The notes beneath the pieces are model-generated. The model saw nothing but the letters and a program-made list of their open reading frames with translations, was not told the DNA's origin and searched no databases. DNA of 32,000 nucleotides. It comes from an uncultured Gammaproteobacteria bacterium (GTDB taxonomy: Bacteria; Patescibacteriota; Microgenomatia; UBA1406; GWC2-37-13). The position numbers and the translations under genes are program-made. The DNA is taken from assembly GCA_964632205.1 (NCBI GenBank), contig CAZWBE010000002.1, forward strand, positions 1 through 32,000. The letters are read 5' to 3'. Of this stretch, positions 2,443 through 23,414 are shown in pieces (the stretch's first letter is position 1; the number at the start of each line of letters is the position of its first letter).

Positions 2443-2613
2443 ATGTGTTTTATTAGACCTTTAAAAATAAAACAAATTGATGGGAAAAAAATCATTCTTG
2501 AAAATGGGATTGAAGCATATTATCATAAAAAGATAGGTGAGCTTAAAATTGGTGATTCAGTCGTCGTCTACGGAAATTTAGTTCTTAATAAAATTTATGA
2601 GCCAAAAAGATAA
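2443..2613 (+). CDS. hypC: HypC/HupF-family [NiFe]-hydrogenase maturation chaperone, miniature (56 aa)
   Basis: An internal ATG gives the N-terminus MCFIRPLKIKQIDG, which matches the HypC MC(I/L)xxPxxI..IDG signature with the essential Cys2. The distal IGDSVVVYGNLVL resembles the HypC GDwVLVHVGFA strand. The upstream 36 codons of the track ORF (TTG at 2335) are low-complexity. Confidence 0.6.
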   Translation: MCFIRPLKIKQIDGKKIILENGIEAYYHKKIGELKIGDSVVVYGNLVLNKIYEPKR

Positions 2614-3556
2614 AGATAGTTTAAAAAAAGGGGTTTTATTAGCTTTGATAGCCGCTATCATCTCAGGATTTGCTATTTTTTATTCCAAATTTGCCGTGGC
2701 TAAAATTCCTCCTTTAATTTTAACTACCTCAAGAAATATGACAGCGGCAGTCTTATTAATGGTGAGTTATTTTTTATTATTAAGACGAAGACAAGAACTG
2801 AAAAATTTAAAAAAAGAAGATGCGATTAAATTGGTGCTTATTGGCATTATTGGTGGTGCTTTACCTTTTTACCTTTTCTTTAGCGGGTTGCAATTAGTTA
2901 AAGCGCCGATAGCTAATCTTATTCATAAAACGCTTTTTATTTGGGTGACTTTTCTTGCCGTGGTCTTTCTTAAAGAAAAGCTTAATTTAGGCTACATTAT
3001 TGCTTTTATTTTAATTTTTATAGGAAATTTTTATTTTGCCAAAATTCCCACGTCTTTTGGCAAAGGAGAATTGTTGATTTTAATTGCCACTCTTTTTTGG
3101 TCGGTGGAGAATATTTTGGCGAAAAAAGTTTTAAAGAACGTTTCCTCTGAATTAGTCGGTTTGTCGCGGATGGGGATTGGGTCGTTAATTCTAGTAGCGG
3201 CGTTAATCACCACCGGACAATTGGGGAAATTATCTGCGATTAACAGTCAGCAATTAACAGTGATTTTAATTGGGGGGACAATTTTATTTTTTTATGTTTA
3301 TTTTTGGTATAAGGCTTTAAAATACGCACCTGCTAGTTTGGCAACATTAATCTTAACTTTTTCGGTGGTAGTGGGTAATATTTTAACCGGGGCTTTTGCC
3401 GGAGTGAAAATTTTACCAAAAGATCTTTATTCATCATTTTTAATTATAATTGCCACGATTATTCTTTATTTTGTAGCCACACACCAACCCGCCTACGACC
3501 TGCCAGGTCGTAAGCGGAGCCTGGCAACAATCCGAAAGTCAGCTAAAAATGGATAA
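2597..3556 (+). CDS. EamA/DMT-superfamily permease (about 10 TM segments)
   Basis: 319-aa ORF with two repeated 5-TM halves typical of EamA domains. Its start overlaps the hypC-like stop by 17 nt, and its stop overlaps the next start by 8 nt. Confidence 0.75.
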   Translation: MSQKDKDSLKKGVLLALIAAIISGFAIFYSKFAVAKIPPLILTTSRNMTAAVLLMVSYFLLLRRRQELKNLKKEDAIKLVLIGIIGGALPFYLFFSGLQLVKAPIANLIHKTLFIWVTFLAVVFLKEKLNLGYIIAFILIFIGNFYFAKIPTSFGKGELLILIATLFWSVENILAKKVLKNVSSELVGLSRMGIGSLILVAALITTGQLGKLSAINSQQLTVILIGGTILFFYVYFWYKALKYAPASLATLILTFSVVVGNILTGAFAGVKILPKDLYSSFLIIIATIILYFVATHQPAYDLPGRKRSLATIRKSAKNG

Positions 3557-4319
3557 TCAAGGCATACTTCTTTGTGCTAAATACGCCGTTTCTCCCAATT
3601 TTTTTGGTTATTGTGGTCCTGATAAAAATTTAAGTTTAGTTGACCACCTAAAAGAAAGTATTGCCGATGATGAATTGGTGGCGATTCTTTCTGATTTTGA
3701 AACCTTATTTCCCTATCTTCAATTAATTGCTCGCCAAAATAAAATTACCGATCCATTTGATCGGCGGGTAGTAGAAGCTTACTGGCTTGGCAATAATTTC
3801 TTAAAACCGACAACAGCTTTAGAGTATGAGGCGTTTGCAAAAGAAAAATTATTATTGGCAGGTAAGTTATCAAAAGATGATTTTTTAAATCTAAAGTTAA
3901 AAATTAACCGGTTAAAATTTATTCCTCATCATGCTTTTCATGTTTTTAATATCTTCAAAAGAACTGGTCATGACTCAAGTTTCCATACCATCAAAACCAT
4001 GGATGAGTGTCGGATTGGTTGGGGTAAGATAATTAAAATTCAAAAATCGAAAATCAAAAATTACAATGAAAAATTAAAAATTAATTCGGTTATAATTGAA
4101 ACCAAAACTTTAATCATTAAAGACGATCAATTAGCTTTATCTAAATCGTTTAGTAGAGAATTAAAAGTTGATTATAAGGGTAAGATTTTTGTCAATAATT
4201 TAAATATTGGTGATTGGATAAGTTTTCATTGGGGATTTGTTTGTGATAAATTAACCGCCAAACAGGTAGCCAATTTAGAATTTTATACACAAAAAGCAAT
4301 TGATTTTTATAATCTATGA
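3549..4319 (+). CDS. Uncharacterized conserved protein with a HypC-like C-terminal segment (possibly the family catalogued as DUF6390; from memory, unverified)
   Basis: 256-aa ORF. The N-terminal motif AKYAVSPNFFGYCGP and RVVEAYWLGN recall conserved hypothetical proteins seen next to hydrogenase and hyp genes. The C-terminal IGDWISFHWGFVCDKL resembles the HypC GDWVLVHVGFA motif. It is translationally coupled on both sides. Confidence 0.6.
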   Translation: MDNQGILLCAKYAVSPNFFGYCGPDKNLSLVDHLKESIADDELVAILSDFETLFPYLQLIARQNKITDPFDRRVVEAYWLGNNFLKPTTALEYEAFAKEKLLLAGKLSKDDFLNLKLKINRLKFIPHHAFHVFNIFKRTGHDSSFHTIKTMDECRIGWGKIIKIQKSKIKNYNEKLKINSVIIETKTLIIKDDQLALSKSFSRELKVDYKGKIFVNNLNIGDWISFHWGFVCDKLTAKQVANLEFYTQKAIDFYNL

Positions 4320-4648
4320 AAATCTATGTTTTTGGCAATCCGTTAGTTAAAGAAGACTGTCTTCCTTTAGAGTTGAGTAATCAGCTAAAAAATAAATTTA
4401 AAGAAATTGAATTTATTCCGGCTGACCCTAATGAAAATTTTCCTCCCAAAGGAGAGAAAGATTTAGTCATTCTCGATACTGTCAAAGGGATAAAAAAACC
4501 AATGTTATTAGATTTAGATGATTTTGAGAAGAAAAAAAAGACTCCATTATCTCCTCATGATTACGATCTTTTATTTCACCTTCTCCTTTTAAAAAAACTA
4601 AAAAAAATTAACAAAGTGTTGATTATTGGCGTTCCTTTTTGCGAATAA
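4316..4648 (+). CDS. [NiFe]-hydrogenase maturation endopeptidase (HycI/HybD-like), miniature (110 aa)
   Basis: GNPLVKEDCLP matches GNxLxxDDGxG. VILDTV and LSPHDYDL supply the Asp and His of the metal-binding triad. ATGA start/stop overlap with the upstream gene. Confidence 0.65.
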   Translation: MKIYVFGNPLVKEDCLPLELSNQLKNKFKEIEFIPADPNENFPPKGEKDLVILDTVKGIKKPMLLDLDDFEKKKKTPLSPHDYDLLFHLLLLKKLKKINKVLIIGVPFCE

Positions 4649-4663
4649 GATTTTTTTAAAAGA

Positions 4664-5974
4664 TTATAGCCATTTTACCTTTAAAAAATGAGCCGCACAA
4701 CTCATACATGGATCAAAAGCACGAATAAATTTTTCCGCCTCATAAATAATTTTTTCTTTTGAAGCCCCCTCTTGCAGTAAATTTTCAACAATTTGATGAA
4801 TGCCTTTTTCCATAATAATTTGATTTTGTCCCGTTGGGACGACAATTTCTGCTTGTTTAATTAATCCTTCTTTGCTAATTTCTAATTTATGATAAAGAGT
4901 ACCCCTGGGAGCTTCAATAACCCCCACCCCTATTGATTCAATTAGATTAATTTTTAGGAGTTTTTCTTCTTTAATCTCCGAAAGATTGTTGATTAGTGAG
5001 TAAGCCATATCAATGGCGTGGAGAACTTCAATTGCTTGAGCTAAATTATTGTCAAATAAATTAGATGAAGGAAAATGTTCTAAATATTTTTTAACCTCAA
5101 TTTTTGTTTGAGGATGAAGTTTATCTTTGGATAAATTAATTCTTGCCAAGGCGCCAGTCATTAAATAATGATTATCTAATAAAAAACCGCGGGCTTGAGA
5201 ATAGGGGATGATTACACCCTTAAGATGATTACCAAAATCTTTTTCTTCAATAATTTTTCCGTTACTGGTATGGATTTTCCCATCCAAAAAAGAAAAATCA
5301 TCCGAGACTAAACTAGAAAAAATAAAAGGGAATCGGGGAATGAATCGCCAGGAAGAATTAAAAAAAATCTCCATCAGTCTCAATATCTTTGGTCTGATTT
5401 TTTCCATTTCAGGAAGAAGTTTTTTTAATTCTTCAATTTTAGGCAATTTAGAAAAGCCGCCAATCGTTGGGTATGGGGCATGAACTGAGCGACCGCCAAC
5501 AATAATTGATAATTGATTACCAATTTCCTTAACAGCAAAAGCATCTTCCAGTAATTGATGTTCAACGAGAATATTTTCATTAAAATCAAGAATCGACTCT
5601 TTACCAAAATAATCAGGGAGACTAAAGATATAGAGATGAAGAGCATGATCGCGAATGATTAATCCCAGAAAAAGCAGTTTTCGTAAAAGAAGGGTTTGAA
5701 AAGAGGGAGTGATATTTAGAGCTTTTTCTATTGCTTCAATGGCGCATAAAAGATGAGCATTGGAACAAGTACCGCAAATGCGTGATAGAAGTTGGGGCAC
5801 GGCTAAAACGGGTTTTCCCTCAACTGCTTGGGTATAAAATCTTTTCCATTCGGAAATATTAAATCTCAACTCCTCAATTTTTTTATTTCTTACCTTTATT
5901 TCCAATGAAGCCGCCCCCTCAATTTTTGAGATTTCAGATAGGTTGATGTCAAAATCAACATCAGATTGATGCAT
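4664..5974 (-). CDS. [NiFe]-hydrogenase large (catalytic) subunit, group 3-like
   Basis: 436 aa. N-terminal RICGTCSNAH (RxCGxCxxxH) and C-terminal DPCMSCAAH (DPCxxCxxH), followed by a 7-residue tail FLKVKWL that could be the protease-cleaved extension. Confidence 0.9.
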   Translation of the reverse strand: MHQSDVDFDINLSEISKIEGAASLEIKVRNKKIEELRFNISEWKRFYTQAVEGKPVLAVPQLLSRICGTCSNAHLLCAIEAIEKALNITPSFQTLLLRKLLFLGLIIRDHALHLYIFSLPDYFGKESILDFNENILVEHQLLEDAFAVKEIGNQLSIIVGGRSVHAPYPTIGGFSKLPKIEELKKLLPEMEKIRPKILRLMEIFFNSSWRFIPRFPFIFSSLVSDDFSFLDGKIHTSNGKIIEEKDFGNHLKGVIIPYSQARGFLLDNHYLMTGALARINLSKDKLHPQTKIEVKKYLEHFPSSNLFDNNLAQAIEVLHAIDMAYSLINNLSEIKEEKLLKINLIESIGVGVIEAPRGTLYHKLEISKEGLIKQAEIVVPTGQNQIIMEKGIHQIVENLLQEGASKEKIIYEAEKFIRAFDPCMSCAAHFLKVKWL

Positions 5975-6047
5975 AAAAATAAAATTGAAAGTTAAAAATC
6001 TAAAATTAAAAATAACAACTGGAAATTTTAAATTGACAAAAAATAGC

Positions 6048-6518
6048 TTATATAAATAAATACTTATTTAACACCTTTAAAAAAAGTTCCTCATTCATAG
6101 GACAACCTGGGACGATTTCATCAACTTGAACGACATCGGCGATTTTTAAAACTTTTTCTTTATATGTAAATTTCTCCAAAATCGGTTTAATTCTTTCTAG
6201 CTGTTTTTGATTAAAAAAATTTCTTTGATTAGCTGGCGAACCTAGTACGGCACAGGAACCAATTGCCACTAAAATTTTTGCCTGTTGACGAATTTTTTTC
6301 AGTTTTTCTTCTTGGATGTTAGAAGTGATGGCTCCTTCAACAAAGGCGATATCCATCGGTTTAATATTTTCATCTTCTTTTTTAAAAATTCTGGCGTGAA
6401 CAAATTCAATTTTTTTAAACCAAACCTGATAGTTTTTATTTAAAAGCTCGGTGAAAATAATCGTTGAATCTTCACAGCAAGTGAAGCTGAACCAACCGAT
6501 TTTAAGTTTTTGGGACAT
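6048..6518 (-). CDS. [NiFe]-hydrogenase small subunit, proximal-cluster domain only (156 aa)
   Basis: KIGWFSFTCCEDS, DIAFVEGAITS, IGSCAVLGS and VPGCPMN align (from memory) with the N-terminal roughly 150 aa of group 3b delta subunits such as Pyrococcus HydD. The ORF ends right after GCP, so there is no medial- or distal-cluster Cys-rich region. Confidence 0.8.
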   Translation of the reverse strand: MSQKLKIGWFSFTCCEDSTIIFTELLNKNYQVWFKKIEFVHARIFKKEDENIKPMDIAFVEGAITSNIQEEKLKKIRQQAKILVAIGSCAVLGSPANQRNFFNQKQLERIKPILEKFTYKEKVLKIADVVQVDEIVPGCPMNEELFLKVLNKYLFI

Positions 6519-6678: not shown

Positions 6679-7725
6679 ATGACCCTTACAGAAGTTTCAT
6701 ATTATACGCGTAAATTTTTACCATTTGTTTTTTTATTTTTTATTATTTTTCTAATATTTTTCTATGCGATTAAATTATTTTTTATTTATCTTGCCTCTCT
6801 TCAGCCGAAAAAAATCTACACCAATCCAGTTTTTGGCAAGATTAAAAAACCATATTTACCAGAAGCAAGCGGTAGCGCCGGTTTTAATTTTACCTTAGAT
6901 ACAATTGAGGGAAAGCCAATTACTGCTTCGGAATCAGCCAAAGTTTACTTTCTTCCTCCTTCTATTGCCCGTTTTGGTTACCGAGAGAAAATATATCTGA
7001 TGGCAAAGACATTTGGTTTTGATACGATGTTGGTAAAGCATACCTTAATTGGTAAGGAAGCAATTTTTAGTGATGAAAAGCAGAAATTAACAATTGACAT
7101 TACTAATTTTAATTTCCGTTATGATTATTATTTTGAAGAAGAAGTGGATTTGTTTTCTCAACCATTAATTCCTTCAAAAAAAGAGATAGAAAATAAAGCC
7201 ATCGATTTTTTAACAACGGTCGGAAGGTATCCCAATGAATTGGCGAAAGGAAAGATTAATATAAACCTAATGCGATATGACTGGCAAGAAAAAAAAATTA
7301 TTGCCGTTTCTCGATCCAATGAAGCAAACATAGTTGAGGTTAATTTCTATCGCCCAGATATTGAGGGAATAGCGGTTGTTACTCCAGGGTTTCCTTCCAG
7401 TCAGAATTATGTTGTTTTTACTTTTTTTGAAGAAGGGTTTAGAGTTTTGCGAGCTCAGGTGAAGTTTTTTGAAAAATCAGAGGAGCAAGTGGGTGTTTAT
7501 CCATTAAAAACAGGAGAGGTTGTTTGGGAGCAGCTAAAAAAAGGGCAGGGATTAGTAGTGTCAGCTCCATCGGATCAGAAAAATATTGTTATTAAAAATA
7601 TGTTTTTAGCGTATCTTGACCCTGATGTTTATCAAGAGTACCTTCAACCAGTTTATGTCTTTTTAGGAGAGCCAAATTTCATTGCTTATGTTCCGGCGGT
7701 TTCTGATGATTTTCTTACGGATTAA
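6679..7725 (+). CDS. N-terminally membrane-anchored hypothetical protein
   Basis: 348-aa ORF. One strong N-terminal TM segment (FLPFVFLFFIIFLIFFYAIKLFFIYL), then a soluble region with no motif I recognise. Confidence 0.6.
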   Translation: MTLTEVSYYTRKFLPFVFLFFIIFLIFFYAIKLFFIYLASLQPKKIYTNPVFGKIKKPYLPEASGSAGFNFTLDTIEGKPITASESAKVYFLPPSIARFGYREKIYLMAKTFGFDTMLVKHTLIGKEAIFSDEKQKLTIDITNFNFRYDYYFEEEVDLFSQPLIPSKKEIENKAIDFLTTVGRYPNELAKGKININLMRYDWQEKKIIAVSRSNEANIVEVNFYRPDIEGIAVVTPGFPSSQNYVVFTFFEEGFRVLRAQVKFFEKSEEQVGVYPLKTGEVVWEQLKKGQGLVVSAPSDQKNIVIKNMFLAYLDPDVYQEYLQPVYVFLGEPNFIAYVPAVSDDFLTD

Positions 7726-22838: not shown

Positions 22839-23414
22839 ATGTTAAAAAATATTATCCCCTCAAAAACAAGACGTAAAATTTTAGAATTTTTTTTCCATCA
22901 TCCCAATGAAAATTATTATCTGAGAAGCATTGTTCGAGAAGTAGACGAAGAAGTGAATGCCGTCAAGCGAGAGCTTGATAATTTGTCAGAAGAAAAATTA
23001 CTCCTAAAAGAAAGACGGCTTAATAAAGTTTATTACAGTCTTAATAAAAATTATCTTTTTTATGATGAATTTTTACGAATTTTTACAAAAACCGGATTTT
23101 TACCTACCCAGATTTATAAAAATCTTCCAAAAATTGGTAAGGTAAAATTTATTGTTTTGTCAACTAAGTTTGCTAAAAATCTTGCCATTAAAGATGATGA
23201 AATATATATCCTTTTTGTTGGGGTGATTGTTATTCCCGAAGTTGAGGTAATTATTTCTCAAGCGGAAAAAAACTTTGGCCGGCCGATAAATTATACCGTC
23301 ATGACCGAAGAGGAATTTATTTTTCGTAAAAAAAACAATGACCCCTTCATTTGGCGATTTTTAAAACAGCCAAAAATAATGTTGGTTGGGATAGAAGAAG
23401 AATTGTTAAAATAA
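22839..23414 (+). CDS. Winged-helix (ArsR-like) DNA-binding protein with an uncharacterized C-terminal domain
   Basis: 191 aa. KTRRKILEFFFHHPNENYYLRSIVREVDEEVNAVKRELDNLSEEKLL is typical of a wHTH domain. Confidence 0.55.
   Translation: MLKNIIPSKTRRKILEFFFHHPNENYYLRSIVREVDEEVNAVKRELDNLSEEKLLLKERRLNKVYYSLNKNYLFYDEFLRIFTKTGFLPTQIYKNLPKIGKVKFIVLSTKFAKNLAIKDDEIYILFVGVIVIPEVEVIISQAEKNFGRPINYTVMTEEEFIFRKKNNDPFIWRFLKQPKIMLVGIEEELLK

Follow-up and report, generated by a model that had tools for sequence, protein, structure and literature searches.

The question raised by this locus is what a 256-residue protein, encoded between the genes for a membrane transporter and a hydrogenase maturation endopeptidase, contributes to the formation of a [NiFe]-hydrogenase. 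The maturation of these enzymes is seen as well mapped, with HypA-F and a protease as its components, and the iron source and the anaerobic synthesis of CO are the questions left open (PMC10847431, PMC12134894). The protein belongs to DUF6390, a large family in which a HypC-like module with its functional Cys and His residues intact is linked to transporters, and which is absent from the model organisms of maturation work. In this report, we propose that DUF6390 probably assists hydrogenase building as a metal-handling protein that has been overlooked so far. If DUF6390 were a metal relay or sensor, an extra step would lie between uptake and cofactor assembly. The whole stretch of DNA that was analyzed, 32 kb in length, is referred to below as the window.

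The DUF6390 gene and its neighbors

The open reading frame is found at 3549..4319 on the forward strand and encodes 256 amino acids. Its ATG lies within the 3' end of the preceding EamA gene, so that the two genes share 8 nt, the EamA stop included, and its TGA forms an ATGA overlap with the start of the reading frame at 4316..4648. The gene is translationally coupled on both sides. The translation contains AKYAVSPNFFGYCGP, RVVEAYWLGN, and GDWISFHWGFVCDKLTAKQ. These coordinates, overlaps, and motifs had been given in an earlier note on this DNA, and all of them were confirmed. The same note had guessed at membership in DUF6390, and the guess was right: PF19927 (DUF6390 in Pfam; gathering cutoff, 25 bits) is matched with an E-value of 2.1e-50 and a score of 171.9 bits, residues 2-255 being aligned with positions 2-238 of the 244 in the profile. 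The protein is a full-length member, and no difference from the rest of the family was seen.

The PF19927 entry carries no functional annotation. Relatives are labeled by NCBI and JGI as "DUF6390 family protein" or "hypothetical protein", and occasionally as "hydrogenase maturation factor"; a search of the literature found no paper that names DUF6390. A family called "fam002", with homology to hypC, has been reported to adjoin the hydrogenases of CPR bacteria, and that account leaves unsaid to which of the two, DUF6390 or the small HypC, fam002 corresponds (PMC7304191). Two further matches of the protein, to the colicin E2 R-domain in Pfam (E = 0.13) and to Mediator Med4 in the PDB (E = 0.71), were treated as noise.

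A mini-HypC of 56 residues (MCFIRPLKI...; 2443..2613, forward strand) is recognized by a local HypC HMM with an E-value of 5.7e-11. The true start is the ATG at 2443; the longer, TTG-started reading frame gives a weak match to Pfam HupF_HypC (E = 0.17). The mini-HypC keeps Cys2 and has a Tyr at the position equivalent to His51. Its 3' end overlaps by 17 nt the start of the gene for an EamA/DMT-family membrane transporter of 319 residues (2597..3556, forward strand), in which both repeats of the family are found (Pfam EamA, E = 1.2e-38). The DUF6390 gene is followed by that for a truncated HycI-like hydrogenase maturation endopeptidase of 110 residues (4316..4648, forward strand), whose matches to Pfam HycI (E = 8e-4) and TIGR00072 (E = 5e-4) both lie below the cutoffs.

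The hydrogenase itself is encoded on the reverse strand. The large subunit (4664..5974) matches Pfam NiFeSe_Hases (E = 5e-29) and the NCBIfam ShyA/HydA models (E ~ 1e-67), and was assigned to the group-3b-like, CPR "hyd2" type by comparison with Jaffe et al. 2020 (PMC7304191). Its metal-binding motifs RICGTCSNAH and DPCMSCAAH are intact, and a C-terminal tail of 7 residues follows the His. The truncated small subunit (6048..6518; 156 residues) matches Pfam Oxidored_q6 (E = 1.8e-19) and VhuG/HydD-like NCBIfam models, and its length agrees with the ~164 residues of "hyd2" small subunits (PMC7304191). The minimal "hyd2" kit comprises the large subunit, the truncated small subunit, the His-less mini-HypC, and the mini-protease. 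Neither a tblastn search of the 32-kb window with the proteins of E. coli as queries nor Pfam scans of its other reading frames detected HypA, HypB, HypD, HypE, or HypF. The absence of these genes, like the identities of the neighboring EamA, endopeptidase, and large subunit genes, is as the earlier note had described it.

Two domains and a putative Cys/His site

An AF2 model of the protein (pLDDT 85.8) divides it into an all-helical N-terminal domain (residues 1-153; 3549..4007, forward strand), with helices across residues 3-154, and a C-terminal domain (residues 154-256; 4008..4319, forward strand), with strands within residues 157-235 and a helix at 237-255. The latter arrangement is that of an OB-fold followed by a terminal helix, and comparisons of profiles and of predicted structure indicate that the C-terminal domain is a true HypC homologue. 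When the DUF6390 profile was aligned by hhalign with an alignment of 27 HypC sequences, a Prob of 94.9 and an E-value of 4.8e-8 were obtained, with C154 placed on Cys2 of HypC and H227 on His51. The same equivalences were found when the family HMM was searched against the PDB, where HypC from T. kodakarensis was matched with an E-value of 0.025. The sole specific match returned by Foldseek was HypC (2z1c, 3vyu, and 3vys; prob 1.0, target TM 0.64-0.85, rmsd 1.4-2.0 A), and it was recovered again with a better model. HupF_HypC was also the only recurrent secondary Pfam match among 104 members of the family, appearing weakly in 29 of them with a best E-value of 5.5e-5.

The window protein by itself is more distant from HypC. 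It has no match to Pfam HupF_HypC at E <= 1, the gathering threshold of PF01455 (28.5 bits) is not reached, and direct comparison with the HypC sequences in the PDB gives E-values of only 0.7-1.5. A chance or low-complexity origin of the likeness is ruled out by the profile-profile alignment, the fold search, and the Pfam matches across members. The HypC-like C-terminus and OB-fold proposed in the earlier note are thus borne out, with an extent of about 100 residues (154-256) rather than the last 60 or so.

The Cys2 residue of HypC is essential, and the adjoining His51 is required both for making the cofactor and for the interaction with HypD (PMC9002611). Like the HypC, HupF, and HybG proteins of PF01455, which are chaperones that carry Fe(CN)2CO during maturation, DUF6390 combines the OB barrel and C-terminal helix with residues aligned to Cys2 and His51, both of which are invariant in the family (C154 and H227 each in 104 of 104), and its gene also lies within hydrogenase maturation clusters. 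In contrast to these proteins, which are about 75-90 residues long, DUF6390 has 256 residues and opens with the 153-residue helical domain, so that C154 is internal and lacks the free N-terminus that Cys2 acquires upon removal of the Met. DUF6390 further differs in that it co-occurs with a separate HypC, is coupled to transporters, and is sometimes fused to DNA-binding domains.

The N-terminal domain appears, from sequence and model comparisons, to be a new helical domain with no known relative. Searches of PDB sequences with the protein and the family profile, Foldseek searches with two models, and Pfam and NCBIfam scans returned no relative of this domain. Its motifs are GYCGP, which contains C22, VEAYWxGN, and PHHxFH, which contains H127, H128, and H131. 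A reading of GYCGP and PHHxFH as HypD-like motifs by homology was rejected; comparison with HypD and HypB of E. coli by hhalign yielded Prob values of 0.1-0.2, that for HypD being 0.1.

Conservation was determined for 104 diverse DUF6390 representatives sharing 26-50% identity. The residues G81, H128, C154, and H227 are invariant; C22 is kept in 103 of the representatives, which supports the expectation in the earlier note about the GYCGP cysteine, H131 in 91, C232 in 81, and H127 in 79. Covariation was analyzed by DCA (Neff 243) on a gap-masked alignment; the result obtained before gap masking was set aside, as it was dominated by indel artifacts. The beta-sheet pairs of the model were recovered and served as a positive control. 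The two domains are coupled through F18/G20/Y21-K206 (z = 5.3-6.9), H131-V215 (z = 6.8), and L7-G221 (z = 7.2), and further couplings were found for Y21-P126 (z = 6.6), F19-T150 (z = 7.7), and K206-F226 (z = 6.3). Covariation thus connects the segments around C22, H128, C154, and H227, which suggests that the four residues form one inter-domain Cys/His site, their proximity being read from the covariation of neighboring residues only. The conserved set could be a purely structural zinc site. It must also be considered, for any role in metal handling, that the Cys of HypC stands at the N-terminus and has its amino group free, while that of DUF6390 is internal, and the chemistry may differ.

Hydrogenase clusters, transporters, and gene fusions

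The DUF6390 family comprises about 900 clusters at 50% identity and is present in more than 583 species genomes from four or more phyla, an archaeon among them; its members come from CPR, Chloroflexota, Actinomycetota, and Bathyarchaeia. Co-location with hydrogenase genes was found across these distant lineages, with a hydrogenase-related gene within 8 kb of DUF6390 at 71 of 80 loci, each counted at the level of the GTDB species. The neighbors at the 80 loci include EamA (60), the large or small subunit (59), the protease (45), HypC (43), and HypA (16). EamA is directly 5' of DUF6390 at 60 of the loci, and an endopeptidase homologue is 3' of it at 39. The earlier note had held that homologues mostly from genomes lacking any hydrogenase would speak against a role in maturation; the great majority lie in [NiFe]-hydrogenase clusters, as a rule behind the gene for HypC, and the Actinomycetota and HTH-fusion loci are in such clusters as well. 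The hydrogenases concerned are group-3b, group-1-like, and HoxH-like.

DUF6390 is directly coupled to one of four unrelated transporter classes, namely EamA, two ABC types, and MFS. An Fbp/Phn/Pot-like ABC system accompanies it in Actinomycetota, a Nik/Opp-like ABC system in Chloroflexia and with the PadR and XRE fusions, and an MFS transporter with the ArsR fusion. In L024/P0134, DUF6390 is fused to the C-terminus of EamA itself. The earlier note had anticipated neither the constant pairing with a transporter gene nor the recurrent fusions to EamA and to HTH domains. Relatives of the window protein, which has no HTH domain of its own, are fused behind HTH domains of four types (XRE, PadR, ArsR, and GntR), and each of these fusions is encoded directly 5' of a transporter operon. 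Only a small share of the family members carry such an HTH domain. This architecture is that of metal- or ligand-responsive regulators of the NikR/ModE type, although the DUF6390 sensing domain is unrelated to the ACT-like domain of NikR or the Mop domain of ModE, and no DNA-binding domain is present in the window protein.

The substrates of these transporters were also considered. NCBIfam gives only generic carboxylate, amino acid, or amine transporter similarity for EamA, and only sub-threshold similarity to PhnS2/T2/U2, Pot, and ferric-ABC systems for the actinobacterial ABC transporter, and none of these matches specifies a substrate. Recognizable nickel transporters (CbiM/PDGLE and NicO) are encoded separately in some DUF6390 clusters, and therefore a substrate other than free Ni is mildly favored for the DUF6390-linked transporter. 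SBP_bac_5 systems are classically nickel or peptide importers, which argues for Ni over Fe.

Proposed function and competing explanations

We hold, tentatively and with somewhat less than even confidence, that DUF6390 is a metal- or ligand-binding chaperone or sensor that stands between a dedicated transporter and the assembly of the cofactor through HypC. A chaperone or sensor is preferred to a pure scaffold because of the coupling to transporters and the fusions to HTH domains and EamA. DUF6390 would be a two-domain accessory protein, in which C154 and H227 of the HypC-homologous domain and C22 and H128 of the helical domain, with the less conserved H131, H127, and C232, most likely make up a single Cys/His site between the domains. 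A metal may be bound there, either as an ion or as part of a metal-containing species, iron being slightly favored over nickel as the presumed ligand. Since the gene adjoins that for HypC and is coupled to that for a membrane transporter, DUF6390 could serve as the cytoplasmic acceptor or sensor for the cargo of the transporter. The cargo would be passed on, or its availability reported, to the process in which the hydrogenase active site is assembled with the help of HypC, with HypC or the large subunit as the presumed recipient of any hand-off. The stand-alone form, as in the window, would be a chaperone or adaptor and the EamA-fused form would be tethered to the transporter. In the HTH-fused form, DUF6390 would be the part that binds the effector and so controls the neighboring transporter operon, and such proteins would form a new type of regulator responsive to metals or ligands. 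Among the points against the proposal, the transporter families are heterogeneous, a substrate common to them being an assumption, and the HTH fusions that inform it are few.

The same fusions would be read differently if DUF6390 delivered nothing and were purely a sensor or regulator, which responds to a small molecule, to a metal, or to the state in which HypC or the large subunit is found, and which gates the adjacent transporter through protein-protein contact or, where an HTH domain is attached, transcription. This explanation agrees with the four HTH classes to which DUF6390 has been fused independently, each fusion lying directly 5' of a transporter operon, and with the fusion to the C-terminus of EamA, and OB/TOBE-like ligand domains, which occur in ModE-type regulators and ABC ATPases, offer a precedent. 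Most members have no DNA-binding domain, however, and the strict retention of the two catalytic-site residues of HypC, together with the position between hypC and the protease gene, points to participation in maturation. We regard a purely sensory role as unlikely. It overlaps with the chaperone or sensor proposed above, and the two are inseparable by sequence alone.

The Fe(CN)2CO group is held by Cys2 of HypC and Cys41 of HypD, the source of the iron being unresolved (PMC10847431). DUF6390 might be a single-chain equivalent of the HypC-HypD complex, with C22 in the role of Cys41, that assembles or holds Fe(CN)2CO in organisms with a minimal kit. This corresponds to the suggestion in the earlier note that the protein could make up for absent canonical Hyp functions. 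It resembles the complex in having a Cys/His pair on a HypC fold and C22/H128 on a partner domain, a set of two Cys and two His that parallels C2/H51 of HypC and C41 of HypD, and its gene follows hypC in the place that hypD occupies in canonical hypABCDE operons such as that of E. coli. No HypD, HypE, or full-length HypF was detected by tblastn in the 1.22 Mb around 86 DUF6390 genes and in the window, where HypC was found repeatedly, and just 10 of the 47 stand-alone HypC proteins linked to DUF6390 retain His51, a residue required in E. coli for HypC to interact with HypD. The N-terminal domain, on the other hand, resembles HypD, with its CGxHxH and GPGCPVC motifs, in neither sequence nor fold (hhalign, as above), being all-helical rather than Rossmann-like, and has no counterpart of the [4Fe-4S] motif of four Cys on which the redox chemistry of HypD depends. 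Where DUF6390 occurs in Actinomycetota and Chloroflexota, the hydrogenases are of the group-1 type, and in such organisms hypDEF normally lies elsewhere in the genome. The coupling to transporters and the HTH fusions are also left unexplained, and we consider a substitute for HypD decidedly unlikely. Our literature search, CPR papers included, found no statement on the hyp gene content of DUF6390-bearing genomes.

A narrower version applies to CPR bacteria with the minimal "hyd2" hydrogenase, in which DUF6390 and EamA together would replace the HypD/E/F route, with Fe(CN)2CO built on the Cys2His2 site or with a precursor or ligand imported from the host; this version seems very doubtful to us. 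If DUF6390 did substitute for HypD in these ultra-small genomes, it would define an alternative, HypD-independent route of [NiFe] maturation and would bear on whether CPR episymbionts make active hydrogenase on their own.

It is quite improbable that DUF6390 is a specialized HypC paralogue comparable to HupF, HybG, or HoxL, that is, a large-subunit-specific chaperone with the N-terminal domain as a protective or specificity cap and with incidental transporter adjacency, as the HypC homology, the retained Cys and His, and a second stand-alone HypC in the same cluster (like the HypC/HupF and HypC/HybG pairs; PMC9002611, PMC12134894) might suggest, since the Cys is internal rather than N-terminal, the range of associated hydrogenases is not subunit-specific, and coupling to four unrelated transporter classes, including a physical fusion, is unlikely to be incidental.

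The HypC-homologous domain of DUF6390 and its conserved residues

The open reading frame at 3549..4319 (+), which encodes 256 aa, was found exactly as the earlier note had described it, and the suggestion made there that its product belongs to DUF6390 proved correct, since the protein is a full-length member of this Pfam family (E = 2.1e-50). DUF6390 is catalogued without an assigned function. It is nowhere mentioned in the literature searched, where the only trace found is a protein family adjoining hydrogenases of the Patescibacteria (CPR) that shows hypC homology (PMC7304191). The family comprises 896 clusters at 50% identity (E ≤ 1e-3) and, with two queries, 992 and 3,635 clusters at 90% identity; it is present in more than 583 species-representative genomes.

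The AlphaFold2 model, calculated from a 62-sequence, two-clade alignment, was confident (pLDDT 85.8, pTM 0.85). The predicted fold is all alpha-helical from residue 3 to 154, followed by a beta-barrel (157-235) and a terminal helix (237-255). The proposed resemblance of the C-terminus to HypC was borne out by four independent comparisons. HypC from T. kodakarensis was the sole specific PDB match found by Foldseek (first model: probability 1.0, target TM 0.70-0.85, rmsd 1.4-2.0 Å; second model: probability 1.0, TM 0.64), and the family HMM recovered HypC from the PDB at E = 0.025. Pfam HupF_HypC matches 29 of 104 diverse members (best E = 5.5e-5), every other secondary Pfam family matching at most 3, and hhalign against a 27-sequence HypC alignment gave Prob 94.9 and E = 4.8e-8 for residues 154-249. 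On these grounds the C-terminal part of DUF6390 is a HypC homologue. The protein is not a strict member of the HypC family, however; the cysteine is internal, the polypeptide is three times larger, and the score falls under the Pfam threshold. The N-terminal domain has no match in PDB, Pfam, or NCBIfam. Kinship to HypD or HypB was rejected after comparison with both, to which the domain is unrelated.

In both the HMMER and hhalign alignments, C154 corresponds to Cys2 of HypC and H227 to His51. Cys2 is essential and bears all of the cofactor-related modifications, and the adjoining His51 is required for cofactor synthesis and for the interaction with HypD; Fe(CN)2CO is thought to be held between Cys2 of HypC and Cys41 of HypD (PMC9002611, PMC10847431). 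Across 104 representatives with 26-50% identity to the window protein, invariance is confined to G81, H128, C154, and H227, and therefore the two function-defining residues of HypC rank among the most conserved positions of the family. The cysteine of the GYCGP motif, C22, whose conservation the earlier note had proposed to check, is retained in 103 representatives, H131 in 91, C232 in 81, H127 in 79, and C9 in only 35.

Spatial proximity was probed indirectly by mean-field DCA of 344 gap-filtered sequences (Neff 243), in which the predicted beta-sheet pairings, used as a positive control, rank among the top pairs. The GYCGP loop couples with P126, the neighbor of H127/H128 (z = 6.6), with T150, four residues ahead of C154 (z = 7.7), and with K206 (z = 5.3-6.9), which in turn pairs with F226, the neighbor of H227 (z = 6.3). 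The pairs H131-V215 and L7-G221 are likewise strong. The covariation fits, rather than proves, a single inter-domain site composed of C22, H128, C154, and H227. These four residues could also form merely a structural zinc site.

The hydrogenase island and its counterparts in other lineages

Four genes form a tightly packed string on the forward strand, with DUF6390 in third place. DUF6390 is preceded by a HypC-like ORF of 56 aa (2443-2613) and an EamA/DMT transporter (2597-3556), which overlaps the former by 17 nt and DUF6390 by 8 nt, and is followed by a HycI-like protease of 110 aa (4316-4648) that shares an ATGA overlap with the DUF6390 stop. The string converges on the reverse-strand genes for the [NiFe]-hydrogenase large subunit (LSU, 4664-5974) and a truncated small subunit (SSU, 6048-6518, 156 aa). 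The LSU has both metal-binding motifs intact (RICGTCSNAH and DPCMSCAAH) and a C-terminal tail of 7 residues, and no beta/gamma diaphorase subunits were found near 4664-6518. This minimal hydrogenase matches the CPR 'hyd2' type, in which the small subunit is truncated and the beta/gamma subunits are absent (Jaffe et al. 2020, PMC7304191). As the earlier note had stated, the 32-kb window holds no HypA, B, D, E, or F by tblastn with the E. coli proteins.

The window protease is shorter than E. coli HycI (156 aa) and scores under the Pfam and TIGRFAM cutoffs; such short forms come after DUF6390 in 39 of 80 loci. Two ORFs belong to no Pfam family, one of 348 aa with a predicted membrane helix at its start, divergent beside the SSU gene (6679-7725, +), and one of 191 aa (22839-23414, +). 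Two divergent genes (203-808, -, and 843-1712, +) encode membrane proteins with CxxC...CxxC zinc-ribbon-like ends, the second also carrying a HELGH metalloprotease motif (M48/HtpX-like). The remaining genes are housekeeping (IF-2, NusA, L25, SecDF, HrcA-GrpE-DnaK-DnaJ, CCA-adding enzyme, AspRS).

Unbiased clustering of every ORF within ±8 kb of DUF6390 at 80 species-level loci returned hydrogenase genes as the recurrent neighbors. EamA is directly upstream in 60 loci, and an LSU or SSU is present in 59, a short or full HycI protease in 45, HypC in 43, HypA in 16, and group 3b beta/gamma subunits in 14-15. Further neighbors are Ni/Co-type CbiM/PDGLE, Nramp, P-type ATPases, VKOR/DsbA, and a pyridine-nucleotide oxidoreductase with ferredoxin. 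At least one hydrogenase-related gene occurs in 71 of the 80 loci, and 7 of the other 9 are contigs ending close to DUF6390. The association extends beyond CPR and group 3b. The gene order in Chloroflexia is SSU-LSU(600 aa)-cytochrome b-HycI-HypA-HypC-DUF6390-NikA-like substrate-binding protein (SBP), and in a Bathyarchaeon HypA/HypB...HypC-DUF6390. In Actinomycetota, DUF6390 lies within hydrogenase clusters, with HypC directly upstream at one locus and HypC with HycI ~6.6 kb upstream at another. Given this linkage across lineages, the homologs are therefore not found mostly in hydrogenase-free genomes.

By tblastn, HypD, HypE, and genuine HypF were not found in 1.22 Mb around 86 DUF6390 genes, and HypB gave a single match. 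The stand-alone HypCs beside DUF6390 always keep Cys2; His51, which is otherwise highly conserved, is present in only 10 of 47, being replaced by N, Y, Q, or A (Tyr in the 56-aa HypC of the window), whereas the HypC-like domain of DUF6390 is never without its His51 equivalent. These substitutions suggest that the partner HypCs have given up the canonical interface with HypD.

The nearest named relatives of the window protein are from Roizmanbacteria and other Patescibacteria. Many contigs syntenic with and closest to the window (L001, L002, L004, L007, L008, L016, L017, L020, and others) are TPA MAGs titled 'uncultured Gammaproteobacteria', 'Pseudomonadales', or 'Saccharibacteria', labels that are probably wrong. 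Some CPR islands contain extra metal-transport genes, either between the protease and LSU (L011, L026) or upstream of EamA (L005, L007, L017); these encode Nramp together with an MgtE-like protein, and CbiM with a PDGLE-domain protein (Ni/Co ECF type).

Transporter coupling and fusions

A transporter gene is always directly coupled to DUF6390, frequently via overlapping codons, and its class varies by lineage. The partner is EamA/DMT in CPR and some Chloroflexota. In Actinomycetota it is an ABC system of SBP_bac_1/11, a fused double permease, and an ATPase-TOBE protein, only distantly Phn/Pot/Fbp-like. A Nik/Opp-type SBP_bac_5 ABC system occurs in Chloroflexia and beside PadR and XRE fusions, and an MFS transporter beside an ArsR fusion. 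The DUF6390 module was also found fused onto the C-terminus of EamA, which indicates physical association, and behind four HTH classes (XRE, PadR, ArsR, and GntR). Every HTH fusion heads a transporter operon. Hydrogenase genes lie within 10 kb of the GntR, XRE, and ArsR fusions; none are present on the short PadR-fusion contigs. A module that has been joined to DNA-binding domains repeatedly and independently bears the hallmark of effector binding. In L088/L089 a 394-aa protein without a Pfam match (2466-3650) lies between the PadR fusion and the SBP_bac_5 importer.

Proposed function of DUF6390

The observation in the earlier note is confirmed and its interpretation partly supported. We regard DUF6390 as an accessory protein derived from HypC in which both a domain and the context are new. 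The literature searched holds no description of its domain architecture, Cys/His quartet, transporter coupling, HTH fusions, or His-less partner HypCs. It is a widespread, testable, and as yet uncharacterized component of a pathway considered essentially complete. Our tentative proposal, rated at slightly under even odds, is that DUF6390 binds a metal or metal complex and works with a dedicated transporter as its partner in the cytoplasm. The putative site would be shared by the novel N-domain, through C22, H128, and nearby His, and the HypC-derived domain, through C154 and H227. The protein would pass on the transported species, or information on its availability, for use in the HypC-dependent construction of the [NiFe] site. 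In the HTH-fused form the same fold may regulate the transporter operon. Homology, conservation, linkage, and fusions are observed; that the protein binds metal, which partners it contacts, and which way transfer runs are inferred.

Iron is slightly favored as the cargo, because HypC holds Fe(CN)2CO with the very residues retained here, because recognizable nickel transporters (CbiM/PDGLE, NicO) are separately encoded in some of the same clusters, and because a fused double permease, a typical feature of ferric-type systems, is part of the ABC system in Actinomycetota. Nickel, or a nickel-chelate, must be taken seriously as well, given the NikA-like SBPs, the adjacency of HypA, and the general absence of HypB. 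The transporter classes point the same way, DMT, MFS, and Opp-type ABC transporters being those that move opine metallophores.

That DUF6390 is purely a sensor or gate, with no role in delivery, appears rather unlikely. We consider it improbable that it acts as a single-chain HypC-HypD surrogate, a reading in line with the compensation for missing Hyp functions suggested in the earlier note. In favor of this reading, the gene is placed after hypC, hypD/E/F are missing from the flanks, and the partner HypC is His-less, but the N-domain is not HypD-like and lacks a [4Fe-4S] motif, the transporters and HTH fusions are left unexplained, and the absence of hypD/E/F pertains to locus flanks. HypD-independent cofactor biogenesis in the minimal CPR islands, the most novel of the readings, is more doubtful still. 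The least likely is that DUF6390 is a HypC paralogue dedicated to one subunit and capped at its N-terminus, a reading weakened by its occurrence with three different hydrogenase groups and by the transporter fusions.

Genes for MinD/ParA/CbiA-type (CooC-like) P-loop ATPases were observed in Actinomycetota and other DUF6390 loci, where HypB might be expected (L083, 14542-16058 and 1305-2069; L081, 6549-7783; L085, 6461-6793; L091, 11518-12312). Some are split into pieces of 254, 105, and 138 aa. It is possible that these ATPases are alternative nickel-insertion NTPases.
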